A stretch of DNA of 64,000 bases from positions 192,001-256,000 of the forward strand of contig JBHGAY010000001.1 in the NCBI GenBank assembly GCA_041946735.1. Reading direction: 5' to 3'. Positions 41,681 through 49,679 of this stretch are shown here, in pieces (position 1 is the first letter of the stretch; each line of letters starts with the position of its first letter). Origin of the DNA: Candidatus Eiseniibacteriota bacterium (GTDB lineage Bacteria; Eisenbacteria; RBG-16-71-46; CAIMUX01; VGJL01). A program made the position numbers and the translations under genes. The notes beneath the pieces were generated by a model. The model was given only the letters and a program-made list of their open reading frames with translations, was not told the DNA's origin and searched no databases.

Positions 41681-41851
41681 GCTGCACCTCCGGGATTGTC
41701 CGTATTCGGTTGCGGGGCTCGCGCTGGCGGGCCTCCTGAAGCACGCGCAGAAGGATACGGCAGCGGCATGGACCTGTCCATCCACGCTGCGGGCCGCGCT
41801 ACCGCCGGCGACGCAGGCGCGGAGAACCGGGCCAGGGTGGACCGGTCTCCG

Positions 41852-42046
41852 TCAGAAGAAAAGAGACGGCGAGCTCGGGCAGGCGCGAAGCATGAAAAGC
41901 GTTGCGGCGGCGGCCGCGCCAAGGACGAGGAGCAGCAGGCCCACGAGCGCGAACGCAGAGATCCGCGGCCGGGAGACGCGAGACAGGACGAACGGCACCC
42001 GGTCGCGAACCCCGGCCGGGGACTCGCGGCGGAGCTCAGCGCCCAT
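41852..42046 (-). CDS. Possible 64-aa single-TM protein
   Basis: GGAG upstream of the ATG, overlaps the previous stop, TM segment AFALVGLLLLVLGAAAAATLFML. Confidence 0.45.
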   Translation of the reverse strand: MGAELRRESPAGVRDRVPFVLSRVSRPRISAFALVGLLLLVLGAAAAATLFMLRACPSSPSLFF

Positions 42047-42269
42047 CGCGGTCTCCGGCCGGCGCTCCGTCCGTCCCGGTCGCCGCCTGCCGCCGATCCG
42101 GAACGTAACGACGGAAGAAGACGATCCCGTTCAGCTCCTGCTTCGGGAAGTTGCGGTTCGGCCGCCGGCGGTCGCGCAACTTGTACGCCGCGTACGAGCC
42201 AACGGCGAGGACGATCGAAGCGATCGTCGCAACCAGGATCGCCATCGAGAAAAAGCCCATCGCGTTCAT
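42036..42269 (-). CDS. 77-aa single-TM protein (BcsF-like candidate)
   Basis: SD GGAGG, N-terminal TM, basic juxtamembrane stretch and IVFFRRYVP. Confidence 0.7.
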   Translation of the reverse strand: MNAMGFFSMAILVATIASIVLAVGSYAAYKLRDRRRPNRNFPKQELNGIVFFRRYVPDRRQAATGTDGAPAGDRDGR

Positions 42270-42327: not shown

Positions 42328-43635
42328 TCAGATCCGCCCCCGGCGCTCGAGCTTCCCCCATCCCATCTCGACAGAAAGGGTCTCCTCGACGAGCGCGCCG
42401 ACGCGGCACACGTCGAGGCAGAGCGTGAAGAAGAGTCGGTAGGGGATCGCGTAGGGAACGAGGCGCAGATCCTCCTCCTCGGCGACGACGCAGAAGAGGC
42501 CGGCGACGAGATCGAGGACCGTGAGCTGCAACCACCAGAGCAGCAGCAGGCCACCCGACTGGTAGGCGCTCGCCATGTAGAGCAGCCAGACCTGAGCCAT
42601 GAGGTTGACGAGAGGCCACAGGAGGCCCTCGAAGAGCAGGTGGAGAATCGAAAGCGAAAGCAGCGCGTTGTCGCATCGGATCGCGGGGCGCACCCGCTTC
42701 TTCACCGCCTGCAGCAGGCCGCGCGACCAGCGGTAGCGCTGCTGGAACAGGTCCCGCATTCCCTCCGGGGCTTCCGTGAAAGCGATCGCGTTCGGCTCGT
42801 AGCGCACCCGCCAGCCCCGCTCGAGGATCTTGAGCGTCAGGTCGGCGTCCTCCGCATACGTATCCTCGGAGTATCCGCCCGCCTCGCGCAGCACCCGCCG
42901 CCGGAACATTCCGAAAGGCCCGGGAATGATCGCCACCGAGCGGAAGAACGCTTGCGCGCGCCGCGACATGTTCAGCCCCTCGACGTACTCGAGCGCCTGC
43001 AGCCGCGTCAGGAGGTTCCGCCGGTTCGCAACCTTCACGTTTCCCGCGACGGCGCCGACCTTCGGGTCGCCGAAATGACGCACCGCGGCTCTCAGGCTTC
43101 CTGGCTCGATCCTGGAGTCCCCATCGACGCAGAGGATCAGGTCCTCGTGCGCGGCGGAGATGCCGAGATTCAATGCGCTCGCCTTCCCGCCGTTCGCTTT
43201 GTGCAGCACCCGCACGCGGGTGCCGGAATAGCGTCCCTCCATCGCGCTCGCGCGCAGGAACGTGTCGTCGGTCGAGCCGTCGTCGATCACGAGAATCTCG
43301 AAGCTCGGATAGTCCAGCTCGAGGAGCGATCGGATCGATGCCTGGATCGTCACCGACTCGTTGAATGCGGGCACGAGGATGCTCACCGGCGGCAGCGCCT
43401 GGCACTCCGGCTCCGCCCCCCCCTCGATCCCGTCGAGGTAGGCGAACCACATGAGGATGAAGTGCCGGAGGATCAACACGCAGAGGAAACCGAAGAAGAA
43501 CGCGCCCGCGCCGCGGGTCCAAGCGGGAAGCGCCGGCAGCGGCTGGCGAAAGAGGATGCCGGCCAGAGCGAAACCGAGCGCGACGAAGAAGCCGGCGAGG
43601 AGGACGAGGAGCAGGAAGTAGCGCACTCTCCTCAC
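42328..43635 (-). CDS. Processive GT2 polysaccharide synthase (PgaC/IcaA-like)
   Basis: PAFNE, DDGSTD, NGGKASALN, VDGD, EDADLT and QQRYRW. Two N-terminal and several C-terminal TMs; no PilZ domain. Confidence 0.9.
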   Translation of the reverse strand: MRRVRYFLLLVLLAGFFVALGFALAGILFRQPLPALPAWTRGAGAFFFGFLCVLILRHFILMWFAYLDGIEGGAEPECQALPPVSILVPAFNESVTIQASIRSLLELDYPSFEILVIDDGSTDDTFLRASAMEGRYSGTRVRVLHKANGGKASALNLGISAAHEDLILCVDGDSRIEPGSLRAAVRHFGDPKVGAVAGNVKVANRRNLLTRLQALEYVEGLNMSRRAQAFFRSVAIIPGPFGMFRRRVLREAGGYSEDTYAEDADLTLKILERGWRVRYEPNAIAFTEAPEGMRDLFQQRYRWSRGLLQAVKKRVRPAIRCDNALLSLSILHLLFEGLLWPLVNLMAQVWLLYMASAYQSGGLLLLWWLQLTVLDLVAGLFCVVAEEEDLRLVPYAIPYRLFFTLCLDVCRVGALVEETLSVEMGWGKLERRGRI

Positions 43636-43638
43636 CGG

Positions 43639-45042
43639 CTAATGTCTCCACTCCAGCGCGAGCCGCACGCTCCGCGATTCGTAGCGGGAGATCCGGCGGG
43701 TCGCCGAGATCTCGCCGGTCGCCACCGCGTCGAGCGAAGAGGCGATCGGAGCGCGGAAAGCGAGCTTGCCACCGCCTGCCTCGCCGGACCCCGTCCTGTT
43801 TCCGACGGCGCCGAACCATCCCGACGCGTCGAGGGAGAAGAAGGCCGGGAGCGGAGGCGAGAGATGGATCCAGGCCGCGGCGGTCCATTCGTCCCTGGGC
43901 GCGTAGTAGAGAGAGGAGCCGCGCGAGTAGCCGGTCCACTGGGCGGCGAGAGCGGCGCGCAGAGGCCCCGCAAGCTTCGCGTCGAGCGCAACGTCGCTCG
44001 AGCGGAAGGCGTTTTCGTCGTCCCAGCTTCCCGCGCGCAGGCGCATGTAGAGGCCGGCGCGGGGCGAGAAGGAGAGGTAGCCGGAGAGGCTGCCGTCGAC
44101 CCCTCGCAGGCCCGCCTCCTCCGCCGCAACGCTCTTCAGCTCGTAGCCGCGATCCGCGAAGGCGGCGGCGGCCTGGAGCGAGGCTCGCGCGAGCGGGCGA
44201 GATCGGAAGACAGCGCGAAGGCGCGGGCAGGCGCCGTCCGCCGAGCCGGCGCCCGGAATCGAGACGCCCGCCTCGAACGCGATGGAAGACCGGGGTCCTG
44301 TCGCGATCTCGGTCCCGGCCTGCAGCAACTGCCTCTCCGTCTCGCTCGCGCTCTCTCCCGCGCTCTCTCCCGGCCCAGGCGCGCCGGCTCCATCACGCGT
44401 GAGGCGTTCGCTTCCCGCCGTGATCGTCCACGCGGTGGCCGGCCCCGTGTCGAGCCGCCCGTGGATCGCGAAGGCGCGAGCGCTCACTTCTCCGGAGTCC
44501 TCGAAGAAGTCGACGCTCGCGCGCACGGCCGGATCGCATTCGCGGGCGAGCGACCGTTCGAGAGAGCGCAGATCCTCGTCCTCCGGGTCGAGGCGGCGCA
44601 GGCGACGGACCGACTCGAGCGCCTCGCCCGACCGTCCCGCCCAGCGCAACGCGTTCGTTCGCGCGCGCAGCACCGCCCGGTCCGCGGGCGACTGCCGGAG
44701 CAGATCCTCGTAGAGGGGGATCGCGGCGTCGGGATCCCCTGACCATGCGAGGGCGTTGGCGAGATCGAGGCGCGTGGCGCGGTCTTCTGGATGGCGCACG
44801 AGCCGATTGCGGAACACGGGGATCGCGATCTCCTCGTTGCCCGCCCAGTGTTCGGCGCGCGCGGCGGCCAGGAGGCTGTCCTCAGGGGAACCGACGGCGT
44901 GCGACGGCTGTGCTCCGCGCGCCGGAGAAGCAAGAAGAAGCGAGAGAGCGGCGAGCGCCGCAGCTACGGTGGCATGACGGGTGCGGCCGCGCGCCGGGCG
45001 GCCCGTGACGCGAGCCGGCCGCGCCACGGCGCCCTGCCTCAT
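43639..45042 (-). CDS. TPR + putative outer-membrane beta-barrel protein (PgaA-like architecture)
   Basis: Signal peptide, TPRs (LANALAWSG..A..LY, NALRWAG), amphipathic beta-strand C-terminal half ending VRLALEWRH. ATGA overlap with the upstream gene. Confidence 0.72.
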   Translation of the reverse strand: MRQGAVARPARVTGRPARGRTRHATVAAALAALSLLLASPARGAQPSHAVGSPEDSLLAAARAEHWAGNEEIAIPVFRNRLVRHPEDRATRLDLANALAWSGDPDAAIPLYEDLLRQSPADRAVLRARTNALRWAGRSGEALESVRRLRRLDPEDEDLRSLERSLARECDPAVRASVDFFEDSGEVSARAFAIHGRLDTGPATAWTITAGSERLTRDGAGAPGPGESAGESASETERQLLQAGTEIATGPRSSIAFEAGVSIPGAGSADGACPRLRAVFRSRPLARASLQAAAAFADRGYELKSVAAEEAGLRGVDGSLSGYLSFSPRAGLYMRLRAGSWDDENAFRSSDVALDAKLAGPLRAALAAQWTGYSRGSSLYYAPRDEWTAAAWIHLSPPLPAFFSLDASGWFGAVGNRTGSGEAGGGKLAFRAPIASSLDAVATGEISATRRISRYESRSVRLALEWRH

Positions 45043-46703
45043 GGCGCGACCGCCAGGCGGCGTGTCCCATACGCGGCGAAGCCCGGATACCGGAAGAGGT
45101 CGAATTCCGGCTCCCGGGCGCGCCGCATCACCTCGTCGGGATCGGCGAACGGCACCCCATCGATCGGCTCGACGACGTCGTAGGAGCAGCGGATGTGCGG
45201 CGGCTCCCCGTCCTGCGGCCGCGGCCATTCACGACGCAGCCGGGCGATGAAGCCGAGCGTCCCCTCGATGGTCTCCGCATGCAGCACGACGAGCGCCTCG
45301 CCTGGACAAGGGAAGGTCAGCAGGTCGTCCGGGCGGCTCAAGCACTCGAGATCCGCCGGGATCGAGGCTGGCGTGTCGGACGACGGATCCCACAGGAGCC
45401 GGACCACGCCGAGGCTCCGGGCGAAGGCCCGGGCGTCTTCGCACGCGCTCTGCAAGTGCGTGCGGAACTCTTCCGGCGGCAGCGCTCGGACGCGGGCGAG
45501 CGACAGGAGATCTTCGACGTCGGCCGCCGGCGGAGCGGCCGGCGCGACGAAGAGGCGGCTTGCGTTGCGCACCTTCTCGATCACTTCGCGCAGCTCGAAG
45601 GGCTTCGAGATGAAGTCGTTGCCCCCGAGTGACAGTCCTCGGACGCGTTCGTTGCGATCCTGAATCCCGGAGACGAAGAGGATCGGCTGGTGGAAGCCCG
45701 AGCCGCGGAGGGCGCGGCAGACGTCGAAGCCGCTGAGCTTCGGAAGCTGGACGTCCAGCAGGATCACGTCCGGGGCTTCGCGGACCGTGCGGGTCAGCGC
45801 CTCCACTCCGTCCTCGGCCATCAGCAGGTCGAACTCGCTGCGCAACGCCTTGCGCAGGAGCGAGCGGATGAAGGGGTCGTCGTCGGCGAGCAGCACGCGC
45901 TTGCGCGGGTGCGGCACGGCCGGCGGCCCGGCCGGCCCGCCGCTGGAACGCGGGGCGGAGACTTGCGACGCGCTGGCGCTCGCGCGAGATGTCGAAGCGT
46001 CCCTCTCGCCATCCGCGGTGACGCGCGTCTCGACCAGCCCGGCTCCCGGCACGATCTGGAACGGGATCTTTCGCATCCGGTCCGACGGCTGGCGGAGCTT
46101 GTGGATGAAGAGTCGCTTCGAGGACTCGAGACTCTCGACCTCGTCCTGCAGCTCGAAGATGCCCTGGCAGATGTCGGAGAAGACCCGGTACAGGGACGGA
46201 TGGCCTTGCGTCGCGCCGCGATCGTTGAGGAACAGGGGGGTCCATCCCCATTCGGCCAGCGTCTCCGTGAGATAGCGGAGGTCGTAGCGGAGCCGTCCCT
46301 CCTCGGTGCTGCCTCCGAAGAGGGGATGGATCGGATCGAAGACGATCCGGCGATACGCCGCTTCGGCGCGAAGCTCGGCGAGAGGTTCGAGGAAGCGCTT
46401 CCACCCGTAACGCATCAGCCGGCTTGTCACGTCCTGGTCGTACTCGAGCAGGCAGAGGTCGCCCCGCTCGACGGCCGGGTAGGGATCGAGCGCCAGGCTG
46501 GCTGCCTGCGCGAGGAGGTCGGCCGGGCGCTCGATCGTCATCAGGATCGCCGGCTCCTTCGAGCCTCCTCCGAGCGCGTACTGCAGGCCGAGCAAGGTCT
46601 TGCCGGTCCCCGCCTCGCCGAAGACCAGGTATGGCTTGCCCCGGAAGAACCCTCCGATGTGATCGTCCAGCAGACCGATTCCCGTGCGAAACGTCCCGTC
46701 CAT
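45039..46703 (-). CDS. KaiC/RAD55-like ATPase + receiver + degenerate GGDEF fusion protein
   Basis: TGI..LD..IGG, GEAGTGKT, IVFD and KLR; REC motifs ADDD, LLDV and SKPF; RPDD-LLTFP-CPGEA-LVVL. Confidence 0.85.
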   Translation of the reverse strand: MDGTFRTGIGLLDDHIGGFFRGKPYLVFGEAGTGKTLLGLQYALGGGSKEPAILMTIERPADLLAQAASLALDPYPAVERGDLCLLEYDQDVTSRLMRYGWKRFLEPLAELRAEAAYRRIVFDPIHPLFGGSTEEGRLRYDLRYLTETLAEWGWTPLFLNDRGATQGHPSLYRVFSDICQGIFELQDEVESLESSKRLFIHKLRQPSDRMRKIPFQIVPGAGLVETRVTADGERDASTSRASASASQVSAPRSSGGPAGPPAVPHPRKRVLLADDDPFIRSLLRKALRSEFDLLMAEDGVEALTRTVREAPDVILLDVQLPKLSGFDVCRALRGSGFHQPILFVSGIQDRNERVRGLSLGGNDFISKPFELREVIEKVRNASRLFVAPAAPPAADVEDLLSLARVRALPPEEFRTHLQSACEDARAFARSLGVVRLLWDPSSDTPASIPADLECLSRPDDLLTFPCPGEALVVLHAETIEGTLGFIARLRREWPRPQDGEPPHIRCSYDVVEPIDGVPFADPDEVMRRAREPEFDLFRYPGFAAYGTRRLAVAP

Positions 46704-46976
46704 CGCCCTGCTCAGCCTCCCTGTCGACTTGCCGTTCCACGGTCCGGAGATACACCGCGTCATCTCCCTATCGGACGACGCGGCTGTTCCCTCCAGCATT
46801 CGGCGAGTTCCTGGAAGCGCCCGATTGGCGCGGGAAAGGGTCGCTCCGGTCATTAGCCAGCGCGCCATCAGGCATCACGATTGATCGCTCGGCGCTCCTG
46901 CGGGGCCGGTGCGATGATCGTTGCTCCGGAACGACTGTGCCTGGGTCGCAACCGATTGGCCGCATCGAGGTGAACC

Positions 46977-49679
46977 ATGACTCGCTGGATGCCTGCCGCC
47001 GGCCGCGGCCGCCTGGGAGCAGTCTCGCTCGCCATCGCGGCCACCTTGGTATGTGGGATCGAGGGAGTGGTTGCGCGCGCCCCGATCCGGCAATCCTTCT
47101 TCAACGCCTATCCGTCCGCCGTCGGGAGCCGCCTCGACAACCTGCCGAGCATTCAAGGGCACTGCGGCGTCTGTCATTACCAGTTCACGGGGGCCGGCCC
47201 GCGCAATCCGTATGGACAGAGGATCGAAGGGCTGCTCGGCAGCTACCCGAACAACGACGCCGGTCGCCAGCGCCTCATGCACGACATCGAGAACGAGGAT
47301 GCCGACGCGGACGGCTACGCCCAGATCACGGAGATCACCGACCTGATCCACTACGGCAACACTCCGACGTTCCCGGGCTTGACCCCCTCGAACGTAGGCC
47401 AGGTGAGCGGCGTGAACGCACAGGACATTCTGGCCTTCCTCGTCCCGGCAGTGGGCGGAGACGTTCAGGCGCCTACCGTGAATGTGATCTCCCCCAACGG
47501 AGGAGAAAGCTGGCAGGGAGGGACGCAGCACACGATCGCGTGGACCGCCACGGACGACGTCGGAGTCATTTCGATCGACGTCTTCTATCGCGCGACCGAC
47601 GCCGAGCCGTGGACGCCGCTCGCGCTGTCGATCGCGAATGCGGGAACCCTTCCATGGTTCGTGCACAACACGCCTGGATCACGCGCGCTCGTTCTCATCA
47701 AGGCGCGCGACGCCGCCGGCAACGTTGGGCAGGACCTGAGCAACGCCTTCTTCACGATCACCCGCGAGACGGGGTCGACCGCCCCGACGACGCTGCGTGA
47801 CTTCGAGATGCCAGGGACGCACCCGCTCCAGGCCACGGGGCTGCAGGACCGCTCCGGGTGCTCAGGCTGCCACGGAGGGTATGATCCTGCCGTCGAACCG
47901 GAGTTCGTGCAGAAGGGGAGCATGATGGCGCAGGCGATGCGCGATCCGCTCTACTTCGCGACGCTGGTCGTCGCCGAGCAGGATGCGTCGTCCTCCGGCG
48001 ACCTCTGCCTACGCTGCCACACTCCGCTCGGTTGGCTGTCCGGACGAAGCAATCCCACCGACGGCAGCCAACTTACCGCGTTCGATCGCGACGGCGTGAC
48101 CTGCGACTTCTGTCACCGGGGCGTCGACCCGAGTTACGTCTCGGGGCAGTCTCCCTCGGTCGATCTGGAGATTCTCGCTGGTCTCGATGCGGTCCCACCC
48201 GGCTACTCGAACGGAATGTACGTGATCGATCCGCAAGCGCGCCGGCGCGGGCCGTTCGCGGACGTCGTCGCCCCGCATCCATTCCTCGTCTCGCCGTTCC
48301 ACGTCTCCAGCAACTTCTGCGGGACCTGCCACGACGTCTCCAATCCGGTCTTCGAGAAGGTGGCGCAGGGGGATTACGCCCCGGGGCCGCTCGACCAGCC
48401 ACCGGAGACGATCCTCTCCTCGGTGACGCTGCCGGTCGAGCGAACCTACAGCGAGTGGCTCCACAGCGAATTCCCGGGCGGCGTCTACGCTCCGGAGTTC
48501 GCGGGAAACAAGCCGGGCGGATATGTGTCGACCTGCCAGGACTGCCACATGCGCGACGTGAACGGCAAGGGGGCGAACGATCCCAACGCGCCGATCCGTC
48601 CGAACCTCCCGCTCCACGATCAGACGGGAGGCAACTCCTGGGTGCCGACGATCCTCGACGAGATCTATCCGAACGAGGTCGATCCGGCGGCGCAGGCGGC
48701 AGCTTCCGCGCGGGCCGTCTCGATGCTCCAGCTCGCTGCCCTGCTCGATCTCACCGTGACCCAGACGCAGCAAGGGCTTCAGGCCGATTGCCTCGTCACG
48801 AACCGGGCCGGCCACAAGCTGCCGACGGGATACCCCGAGGGACGCAGGATGTGGATCCAGATCCGTGCGTACGACGGGTTCGGTCAATTGGTGTACCAGT
48901 CGGGGGCCTACGATCCCGCGACCGGCGTGTTGATCCAGGACGCGGACGCCGTCGTCTACGAGGCCAAGCCGGGGCTTTCCGGATCCTGGGCAGGGGCGCT
49001 CGGGCTCCCAGCCGGACCTTCCTTCCACTTCGCGCTGAACGACTCGATCTACAAGGACAACCGGATCCCGCCGCGCGGCTTCACGAACGCAGGCTACGCG
49101 ACGTTCGGCGGCGAGCCGGTCGATCCGCACCACGAAGGGCCGGGGCCTCGCTACGCGGACGGGCAGAACTTCGACGTCGCCAGCTACCTTCTGCCCGCCT
49201 CCGCGCGCAAGATCGTCGCGACTCTCTTCTACCAGACGGCGTCGAAGGAGTACGTCGAGTTCCTGCGGGACGAGAACGTGACCGACGACAAGGGCCTGCT
49301 GATGTACAGCCTGTGGCAGAACAATGGAAGGTGCGCTCCGGTGATGATGGTCCGCGACAGCGTCCTCTACGTTCCCGGGGCGGCCGAGGACGGATCGATC
49401 GCCGGGCGGCGTCTCGAGATCGAGGCGTTCCCGAGTCCGTTTACCGACGGGCTGTCGATCCGTATGAACATTCCGCGTCCGCGCGAGCTCAAGGCGGAGA
49501 TCTTCGATCTTCAGGGGCGCCTGGTCTTCCGCCGCGCCTGGCCGCCCATCACCGGAGCGCTCTCGCTCCACTGGGACGGACGGGATGGCGCTGGACGCCC
49601 GGTCGCGCCCGGGATCTATTGGCTCCGCGTGGAATCGGGCGGGCAGGCGCAGACGAAGCGATTGGTCCGCATCTCCTGA
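46977..49679 (+). CDS. Secreted multiheme c-type cytochrome (6 CxxCH) with Ig-like domain and FlgD-Ig-like tail
   Basis: CGVCH, CSGCH, CLRCH, CDFCH, CGTCH and CQDCH; SPNGGE.W Ig-like module; AGHKLPTG; tail PSPF..WDGRDG.G..PGIYW. Confidence 0.9.
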   Translation: MTRWMPAAGRGRLGAVSLAIAATLVCGIEGVVARAPIRQSFFNAYPSAVGSRLDNLPSIQGHCGVCHYQFTGAGPRNPYGQRIEGLLGSYPNNDAGRQRLMHDIENEDADADGYAQITEITDLIHYGNTPTFPGLTPSNVGQVSGVNAQDILAFLVPAVGGDVQAPTVNVISPNGGESWQGGTQHTIAWTATDDVGVISIDVFYRATDAEPWTPLALSIANAGTLPWFVHNTPGSRALVLIKARDAAGNVGQDLSNAFFTITRETGSTAPTTLRDFEMPGTHPLQATGLQDRSGCSGCHGGYDPAVEPEFVQKGSMMAQAMRDPLYFATLVVAEQDASSSGDLCLRCHTPLGWLSGRSNPTDGSQLTAFDRDGVTCDFCHRGVDPSYVSGQSPSVDLEILAGLDAVPPGYSNGMYVIDPQARRRGPFADVVAPHPFLVSPFHVSSNFCGTCHDVSNPVFEKVAQGDYAPGPLDQPPETILSSVTLPVERTYSEWLHSEFPGGVYAPEFAGNKPGGYVSTCQDCHMRDVNGKGANDPNAPIRPNLPLHDQTGGNSWVPTILDEIYPNEVDPAAQAAASARAVSMLQLAALLDLTVTQTQQGLQADCLVTNRAGHKLPTGYPEGRRMWIQIRAYDGFGQLVYQSGAYDPATGVLIQDADAVVYEAKPGLSGSWAGALGLPAGPSFHFALNDSIYKDNRIPPRGFTNAGYATFGGEPVDPHHEGPGPRYADGQNFDVASYLLPASARKIVATLFYQTASKEYVEFLRDENVTDDKGLLMYSLWQNNGRCAPVMMVRDSVLYVPGAAEDGSIAGRRLEIEAFPSPFTDGLSIRMNIPRPRELKAEIFDLQGRLVFRRAWPPITGALSLHWDGRDGAGRPVAPGIYWLRVESGGQAQTKRLVRIS

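Follow-up and report, generated by a model that had tools for sequence, protein, structure and literature searches.

The closest described system is that of BcsE, the c-di-GMP-sensing cellulose regulator of E. coli, which passages of two papers describe as three dead domains whose genes may have been fused within the enterobacteria (PMC7439463, PMC8892547). The protein of 554 amino acids considered here shares with BcsE the order of NTPase, receiver (REC) and degenerate GGDEF domains, a linker helix, the loss of the catalytic loop and of the first helix of the GGDEF domain, the register of the I-site, a gene for a small single-pass partner, and location in a polysaccharide operon. Unlike BcsE, it keeps the Walker A and B motifs, the arginine finger and the phospho-acceptor, and its clade has no second RxxD. 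Moreover, it scores below the Pfam model of BcsE, its partner synthase is PgaC-like and lacks PilZ, and its genome contains no cellulose synthase above the cut-off.

Other systems are similar in single parts. The CI domain of KaiC and the single-domain ATPases of the KaiC, RAD55 and FlaH type have the same fold, Walker A motif, Walker B aspartate and K-x-R finger. However, in our protein this domain is fused to a receiver and a degenerate GGDEF domain, has one glutamate for the Glu-Glu pair, and is not followed by CII. PelD of Pseudomonas also has a dead GGDEF domain with RxxD and is encoded beside a polysaccharide synthase; it is membrane-bound, contains a GAF domain and has neither an ATPase nor a receiver. 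The PgaABCD system of PNAG synthesis shares a PgaC-like GT2 synthase, a TPR-containing export protein and, in relatives of the genome studied, a deacetylase-family gene. However, no PgaD was found in this genome, the GT2 synthase and the porin score under the curated cut-offs, and there are an additional three-domain regulator and a small membrane gene.

The window, that is, the whole analysed stretch of 64,000 nucleotides, contains the following features of the operon.

45039..46703, reverse strand: first gene of the operon, encoding the KaiC-REC-degenerate GGDEF protein of 554 aa (P0001; reading frame, Pfam, homologues, model)
46020..46703, reverse strand: KaiC/RecA-type ATPase domain, residues 1-228 (Pfam E 6e-30, alignment with KaiC, model match)
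45549..45908, reverse strand: receiver domain, residues 266-385 (Pfam, fold match), without the BcsE-type second RxxD
45099..45530, reverse strand: linker helix and degenerate GGDEF domain, residues 392-535 (profiles, model), which has the I-site R457xxD460 and R488 and lacks the catalytic loop and the first helix
43639..45042, reverse strand: protein of 467 aa with a signal peptide, TPR repeats and a probable outer-membrane barrel (TPR matches; conserved in four relatives)
42328..43635, reverse strand: processive GT2 synthase of 435 aa, closest model PgaC/IcaA, with D,D,D,QxxRW intact
42036..42269, reverse strand: single-pass membrane protein of 77 aa with a basic stretch and an FF-x-x-Y tail motif, candidate tether

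The best reading of this locus is that the 554-aa protein is a cytoplasmic, membrane-tethered gate on a PNAG-like synthase, dependent on c-di-GMP and phosphorylation. The N-terminal domain would bind ATP and oligomerise via its arginine finger, with hydrolysis slow at best, and the tail of the small protein would tether this domain to the membrane in the way that BcsF anchors BcsE. The dead GGDEF domain would bind c-di-GMP at R457xxD460/R488. Micromolar affinity is proposed because the second RxxD of BcsE is missing here, by analogy with the low micromolar binding of single-site BcsE reported in part of a preprint (bioRxiv 10.1101/2024.06.05.597511). Phosphorylation of D317 by an unlinked kinase would alter the dimerisation of the receiver. 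The assembly would then turn on the PilZ-less GT2 synthase, and the polymer would exit through the TPR-barrel protein. The retention of RxxD, the match to the BcsE profile, the order of the operon and the c-di-GMP enzymes of the genome speak for this scheme. Taken as a whole, with the regulator held by the small protein, a single c-di-GMP site, an unlinked kinase and activation of the neighbouring synthase, we rate it as only just on the probable side.

Domains of the 554-aa protein

The start of the gene was set at 46703. A longer frame of 609 aa starting at 46868 was dropped, because the starts of the homologues correspond to 46703: the 17 full-length homologues (38-60% identity) share this methionine. 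One of them carries the label Candidatus Eisenbacteria. A wider search added more KaiC-REC proteins, and 63 were aligned for the family counts. Pfam recognizes KaiC (PF06745, residues 6-222, E 6e-30) and Response_reg (residues 270-379, E 9e-24) and gives no GGDEF match for the single protein. The AlphaFold model, constructed from an alignment of 18 sequences (the protein and the 17 homologues), has mean pLDDT 83 and contains three ordered domains, residues 229-264 being a disordered linker. The lists returned by fold searches with the full model were dominated by KaiC and receiver entries. A collection scan with the full-protein alignment produced ordinary receivers only, because the search patterns derived from the REC domain. 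At the level of sequence, the composition of a KaiC-type ATPase, a receiver and a dead GGDEF domain is confirmed, and all KaiC-like and receiver motifs listed in the preliminary description of this DNA are present.

The ATPase domain contains Walker A G29-EAGTG-K35-T, Walker B IVF-D123, the finger K202-L-R204 and the glutamate E58. The comparison of the model with KaiC, suggested in the same description, yielded a match to CI over 213 aligned residues (Z 26, rmsd 2.3), and the KaiC-type matches span Z 22-26. In the alignment with KaiC, a one-residue deletion leaves a single Glu in place of the Glu-Glu pair, and the residue after Walker B is Pro instead of Ser. E58 aligns to the strand that carries the KaiC glutamates, likewise at its end. 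Since the latter are important for KaiC, as stated in parts of two papers (PMC5007536, PMC9171630), and the pair is reduced here, hydrolysis by the 554-aa protein is uncertain. In the clade of the window, which comprises 20 proteins, K35, D123 and R204 are each kept in 20/20 and E58 in 18/20. ATP binding by the N-terminal domain is predicted as quite probable, and for ATP hydrolysis we consider the chances even.

These observations bear on the main alternative, in which the protein is a BcsE-like scaffold that binds c-di-GMP and the tether, and its KaiC domain binds nucleotide only or is inert, like FlaH-like or BcsE-like modules. The loss of one Glu of the pair and the replacement of DS by DP agree with such a role, as does the decay of other clades, one of which has the Walker A Lys replaced by Arg in 26/26 members while in the Acidobacteriota the finger and the Glu are lost. 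Part of one paper also reports that the E77Q/E78Q substitution leaves the ATPase of KaiC at 22% (PMC5007536). However, the conservation of K35, D123, R204 and E58 in the clade of the window, together with the position of E58, argues against an inert domain. One glutamate is enough in RecA and DnaB. Overall, the scaffold role appears doubtful, although it is the strongest of the alternatives. A clock role was rejected: the circadian KaiC model gives 72 bits at a cut-off of 408, and the protein has a single KaiC domain with no CI-CII tandem, so in the absence of CII it is not a clock protein. A separate double-domain KaiC is encoded in the same genome.

The receiver contains D274/D275, D317, S345 and K367-P368, and its model superimposes on known receivers with Z 22.4 and rmsd 1.2 over 120 residues. 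The phosphorylation set (acidic pocket, Asp, Ser/Thr, Lys) is complete in 18/18 close homologues, and D317 is kept in 19 of the 20 proteins of the clade. Phosphorylation of this domain is predicted as likely; no kinase was found by Pfam in the operon.

The C-terminal domain has R457-P-D-D460 (R457 at nucleotide 45335) and, five residues further, CPGEA in place of GGDEF. This is the RxxD-x5-GGDEF spacing with a lost catalytic motif that had been noted earlier. Poor conservation of RxxD among orthologues had been named as a refuting outcome. RxxD is retained in 15/18 close homologues and 59/63 wider ones, GGDEF being lost in all of them. The I-site arginine is lost in 3/18 close homologues and kept in 17/20 members of the window's clade. 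A profile of 25 C-terminal domains produced 27 matches in PDB at E<=10 (best E 2e-5), all of which are named as cyclases or GGDEF proteins, PelD, or labelled uncharacterized; the PelD structures are weak matches (E 0.04). Among 39,964 ORFs of the genome, the best other match of the family's C-terminal profile is a GGEEF cyclase (E 1e-12), and in alignments with two other cyclases of this genome RxxD falls in the I-site register. Pfam PelD_GGDEF weakly matches 7/45 relatives. Arg or Lys stands 31 residues downstream of the I-site in 58/63 proteins, and Arg in 12/23 comparison cyclases; this is the place of the secondary I-site arginine of PleD.

The domain is thus a degenerate GGDEF, as judged from these profiles. 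Diguanylate cyclase activity was rejected, with CPGEA instead of GG[DE]EF and a nine-residue gap relative to true cyclases that removes the metal-binding loop; according to part of one paper, this loop and the first helix are missing from BcsE and PelD as well (PMC7439463). Folding of the C-terminal domain alone from a single sequence without alignment gave pLDDT 41, and this model was discarded; hence the GGDEF fold is assigned from the profiles together with the secondary structure that the full model shows. The genome encodes five GGDEF domains above the Pfam cut-off, three of them with GG[DE]EF, and one HD-GYP motif, and therefore c-di-GMP signalling. Binding of c-di-GMP is the most confident of the predictions for the three domains.

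The operon and the candidate tether

The start of the TPR gene overlaps the stop codon of the regulator (ATGA). The PgaA model matches the TPR part only of the 467-aa protein (E 2e-6), and its barrel part is matched by no family or structure; we infer a PgaA-like role. The synthase scores 214 bits with TIGR03937 (PgaC/IcaA) at a cut-off of 422 and has no PilZ match. Its orthologues in four relatives are 64-69% identical. Among 206 genomes of the phylum, a close orthologue was found only in these five, the genome itself and the four relatives, and 19 others have more distant GT2s. The order regulator-TPR-GT2-small membrane gene is kept in 4/4 relatives with full context; the locus of a fifth relative ends at a contig edge. 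In all four, the operon is followed by a deacetylase-family gene, which is absent in the genome of the window, both at the locus and elsewhere. This genome (95% complete) contains no PgaD, BcsF or cellulose synthase (CelA) above the cut-off, and no sigma-70-like site was observed upstream of the operon. One relative (protein P0014, genome G006) has lost the I-site arginine, and the full operon is still present there, which counts against the gate reading, as does the lack of nearby polysaccharide genes in most other clades. The operon, the small membrane partner and the missing second I-site do not figure in the preliminary description.

The small protein resembles BcsF in size, topology and gene pairing. 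Part of a preprint describes for BcsF this topology and a tail that extends the N-terminal domain of BcsE by one strand (bioRxiv 10.1101/2024.06.05.597511). No sequence kinship with BcsF (PF11120) was detected, the comparison giving 15% for the profile and 0.1% for the tails, and 12 members of the small protein group have no Pfam match. The FF-x-x-Y motif occurs in 3/190 short ORFs of the genome with an N-terminal transmembrane segment, the 77-aa protein included. In the sister clade from genomes of family f4, a small membrane ORF with the same Phe-Phe tail motif lies directly downstream of the regulator in 11/12 loci; one of these eleven ORFs has no clear start codon. In the Acidobacteriota, a small gene with the FF motif follows the regulator in 2/13 loci, which were drawn from the class of a Pyrinomonadaceae genome. 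By analogy with BcsF, the small protein is a reasonably good candidate for the tether of the ATPase domain.

Some of these loci suggest another possibility, namely that the regulator and its tether form a general signalling hub whose output is not the synthase, the operon being merely shared in this clade. Indeed, in family f4 the pair of regulator and small gene occurs away from a synthase: a close GT2 orthologue was found in 0/15 genomes (at E 1e-60, from 8 scored candidates in each genome), none of the 12 fetched loci has a synthase or TPR gene beside the regulator, and each of the three loci scanned further has a gene for an ECF-type sigma factor downstream. The Acidobacteriota members appear as orphans, no polysaccharide genes being recognised beside 13 of them. 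On the other hand, the overlap of the regulator with the TPR gene, the gene order in 4/4 relatives and the fact that BcsE regulates a polysaccharide synthase make the hub rather improbable. Control of the neighbouring GT2 synthase by the regulator, as the gate reading has it, seems somewhat more likely than a different output.

Relationship to BcsE

The profile of 63 family members aligns end-to-end with 22 diverse BcsE proteins (97% probability, E 6e-11, 431 columns, 13% identity), and with 80 members hhalign gives 97.7% and up to 438 columns; the control with a reversed alignment gives 0.4%. This collinear match, at 97-98% over 431-438 columns, bears out the BcsE-like domain order claimed at the outset. 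The linker helices are paired in this alignment, as are the two RxxD sites, R457xxD460 corresponding to R415xxD418 of BcsE.

Considered by parts, the degenerate GGDEF domain of the family matches BcsE at 87%, compared to 0.4% for 28 intact GGDEF domains, and the receiver with the degenerate GGDEF at 75%, compared to 0.3% for generic REC-GGDEF. The receivers alone give 0.7% (control 0.2%). The N-terminal domain gives 96.5%, and 18 KaiC domains 87%; the latter value was 96% when four family members were included in the control. The second site of BcsE, R306ATD, is in register in 31/63 family members, 15/22 BcsE and 2/192 unrelated receivers. It was found in 0/20 proteins of the window's clade, and the 554-aa protein has D349-x-x-E352 at this position. 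Single subclades match BcsE at 43-96% over the full length and at 1-32% on the degenerate GGDEF part; the signal of this part is weak from single subclades and needs the pooled family profile.

Single sequences give less. Pfam CBP_BcsE (PF10995) matches neither the protein nor, at E<=1, anything in the genome, the E. coli control being positive. The family profile gives 0.3% with the single E. coli BcsE, and the family HMM matches single BcsEs weakly, the best pairwise E-value being 2e-4 for one divergent BcsE. The sequence evidence makes homology of the family and BcsE likely. Since several features by which BcsE is recognised are absent, the 554-aa protein is not classed as BcsE; it would work in a similar way and is probably a relative of it.

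A tree of the N-terminal domain (40 of 80 family members, 11 of 22 BcsE, 18 KaiC domains, 217 columns) groups the family and BcsE against the KaiC domains with support 98/91. The branches of BcsE are long, and the order within the group is not fixed: by AU tests, the data are compatible both with a family that excludes BcsE (p 0.46) and with a pairing of BcsE and the window's clade (p 0.13). The protein had been suggested to be a less degenerate, ancestral-like relative of BcsE. The retained motifs agree with the first part, and these tests leave the second undecided. It is very improbable that the fusion of KaiC, REC and GGDEF arose by convergence, unrelated to BcsE and with RxxD as a structural relic: the 13% identity, the lack of CBP_BcsE matches in the genome, the 0.3% with a single BcsE and the 87% of generic KaiC domains would fit, but the specific match of the dead GGDEF domain, the shared linker helix and the second RxxD in 31/63 proteins versus 2/192 controls argue for common origin.

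Variation within the family

The ATPase, phospho-site and I-site motifs are all intact in 14/80 family members, and all 14 belong to the clade of the window (14/20). Every other clade misses something. In the Lys-to-Arg clade the receiver is live and there are two I-sites; attempts to recover its genomic context gave 0/301 in a stricter first screen and then 0/5. In the dead-receiver clade the receiver Asp occurs in 0/9 members.

The presence of a full-length relative with live-looking motifs in a distant phylum suggests that the fusion of the three domains is older and more widespread than an origin within the enterobacteria would imply. No description of a KaiC-REC-degenerate GGDEF family was found in the openly accessible literature searched; only PMC7439463 brought together BcsE, homologs and KaiC, and passages of PMC8892547 and PMC10333796 contained nothing more on such a family. 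A tentative extension, which we would not expect to hold in full, is that BcsE is a decayed proteobacterial branch of this wide undescribed family. The clade of the window would then be the working form, a membrane-tethered ring ATPase that would integrate ATP turnover, phosphorylation and c-di-GMP in gating a PNAG-type synthase, with the phospho-switch replacing the second c-di-GMP site. The regulator may reveal the past role of the dead domains of BcsE, and the family makes the original purpose of its ATPase and receiver testable, as it provides natural variants with the ATPase live or dead, the receiver live or dead, and one or two I-sites. The operon also suggests a possible route of c-di-GMP control for PgaC-like synthases without PgaD and PilZ.

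The clade of the window occurs in 6/206 genomes of the phylum, its own genome included, and the sister clade in 13/15 genomes of family f4. In the class of a Pyrinomonadaceae genome, 32/131 genomes were matched.

Genes flanking the operon

At the 3' end of the operon, the gene of the small membrane protein is followed by a deacetylase-family gene in all four relatives. This gene is absent at 41785-42036 of the window, and its place downstream of the small gene is taken by an unrelated gene encoding a BNR-repeat secreted protein. On the other side, the operon is preceded by a divergent gene:

46977-49679, + strand: multiheme cytochrome c, 900 aa, with a C-terminal sorting domain

This gene was not seen next to the operon in the relatives.

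In family f4, which carries the sister clade of the regulator, the loci L192-L203 contain a regulator with a dead receiver and a small gene. An ECF-type sigma factor follows this pair in all three f4 loci scanned. Close by are genes for a GAF/HD-domain protein, a sodium:solute symporter and an SpoU methylase.

The C-terminal TGTD motif

A TGTD(G) motif is found at or near the C-termini of most regulators of the window's clade (P0002-P0015) and of the small proteins; the loci include 42036-42269 (- strand) of the window, L168, L170, L192, L193 and L203. The regulator of the window lacks the motif, and its small protein carries it. Near the terminus, TGT[DE] occurs in 13 of the 39,964 ORFs of the same genome, the majority being spurious frames.

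Domain and motif variants

The two Acidobacteriota members with a full Walker A motif (L248:8327-10350 and L249:8481-10378) also have the small FF-motif gene; in both, the I-site arginine is replaced by histidine. No small FF-motif gene was seen at the other 11, whose Walker A is shortened. The I-site arginine is also missing in the subgroup of P0014 (L170:6968-8641, genome G006), P0011 and P0013, where the ATPase and receiver motifs are kept. Despite this loss, G006 retains the full operon.

The REC-GGDEF* proteins P0138 and P0213 of the family have no ATPase domain, which may reflect either gene splitting or gene calls that were cut short. Further proteins with related domains encoded by the genome of the window itself include:

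contig C25, 20298-21419, - strand: another GGDEF domain, in which the signature is degenerate and an RxxD site is present
contig C20, 60736-62553, - strand: double-domain KaiC homologue, separate from the regulator

A true but divergent BcsE was found in another genome (G300, L173:1366-2997, - strand). Its N-terminus aligns end to end with the KaiC domain of the family (pairwise E-value 2e-4); this BcsE is a useful bridge sequence.
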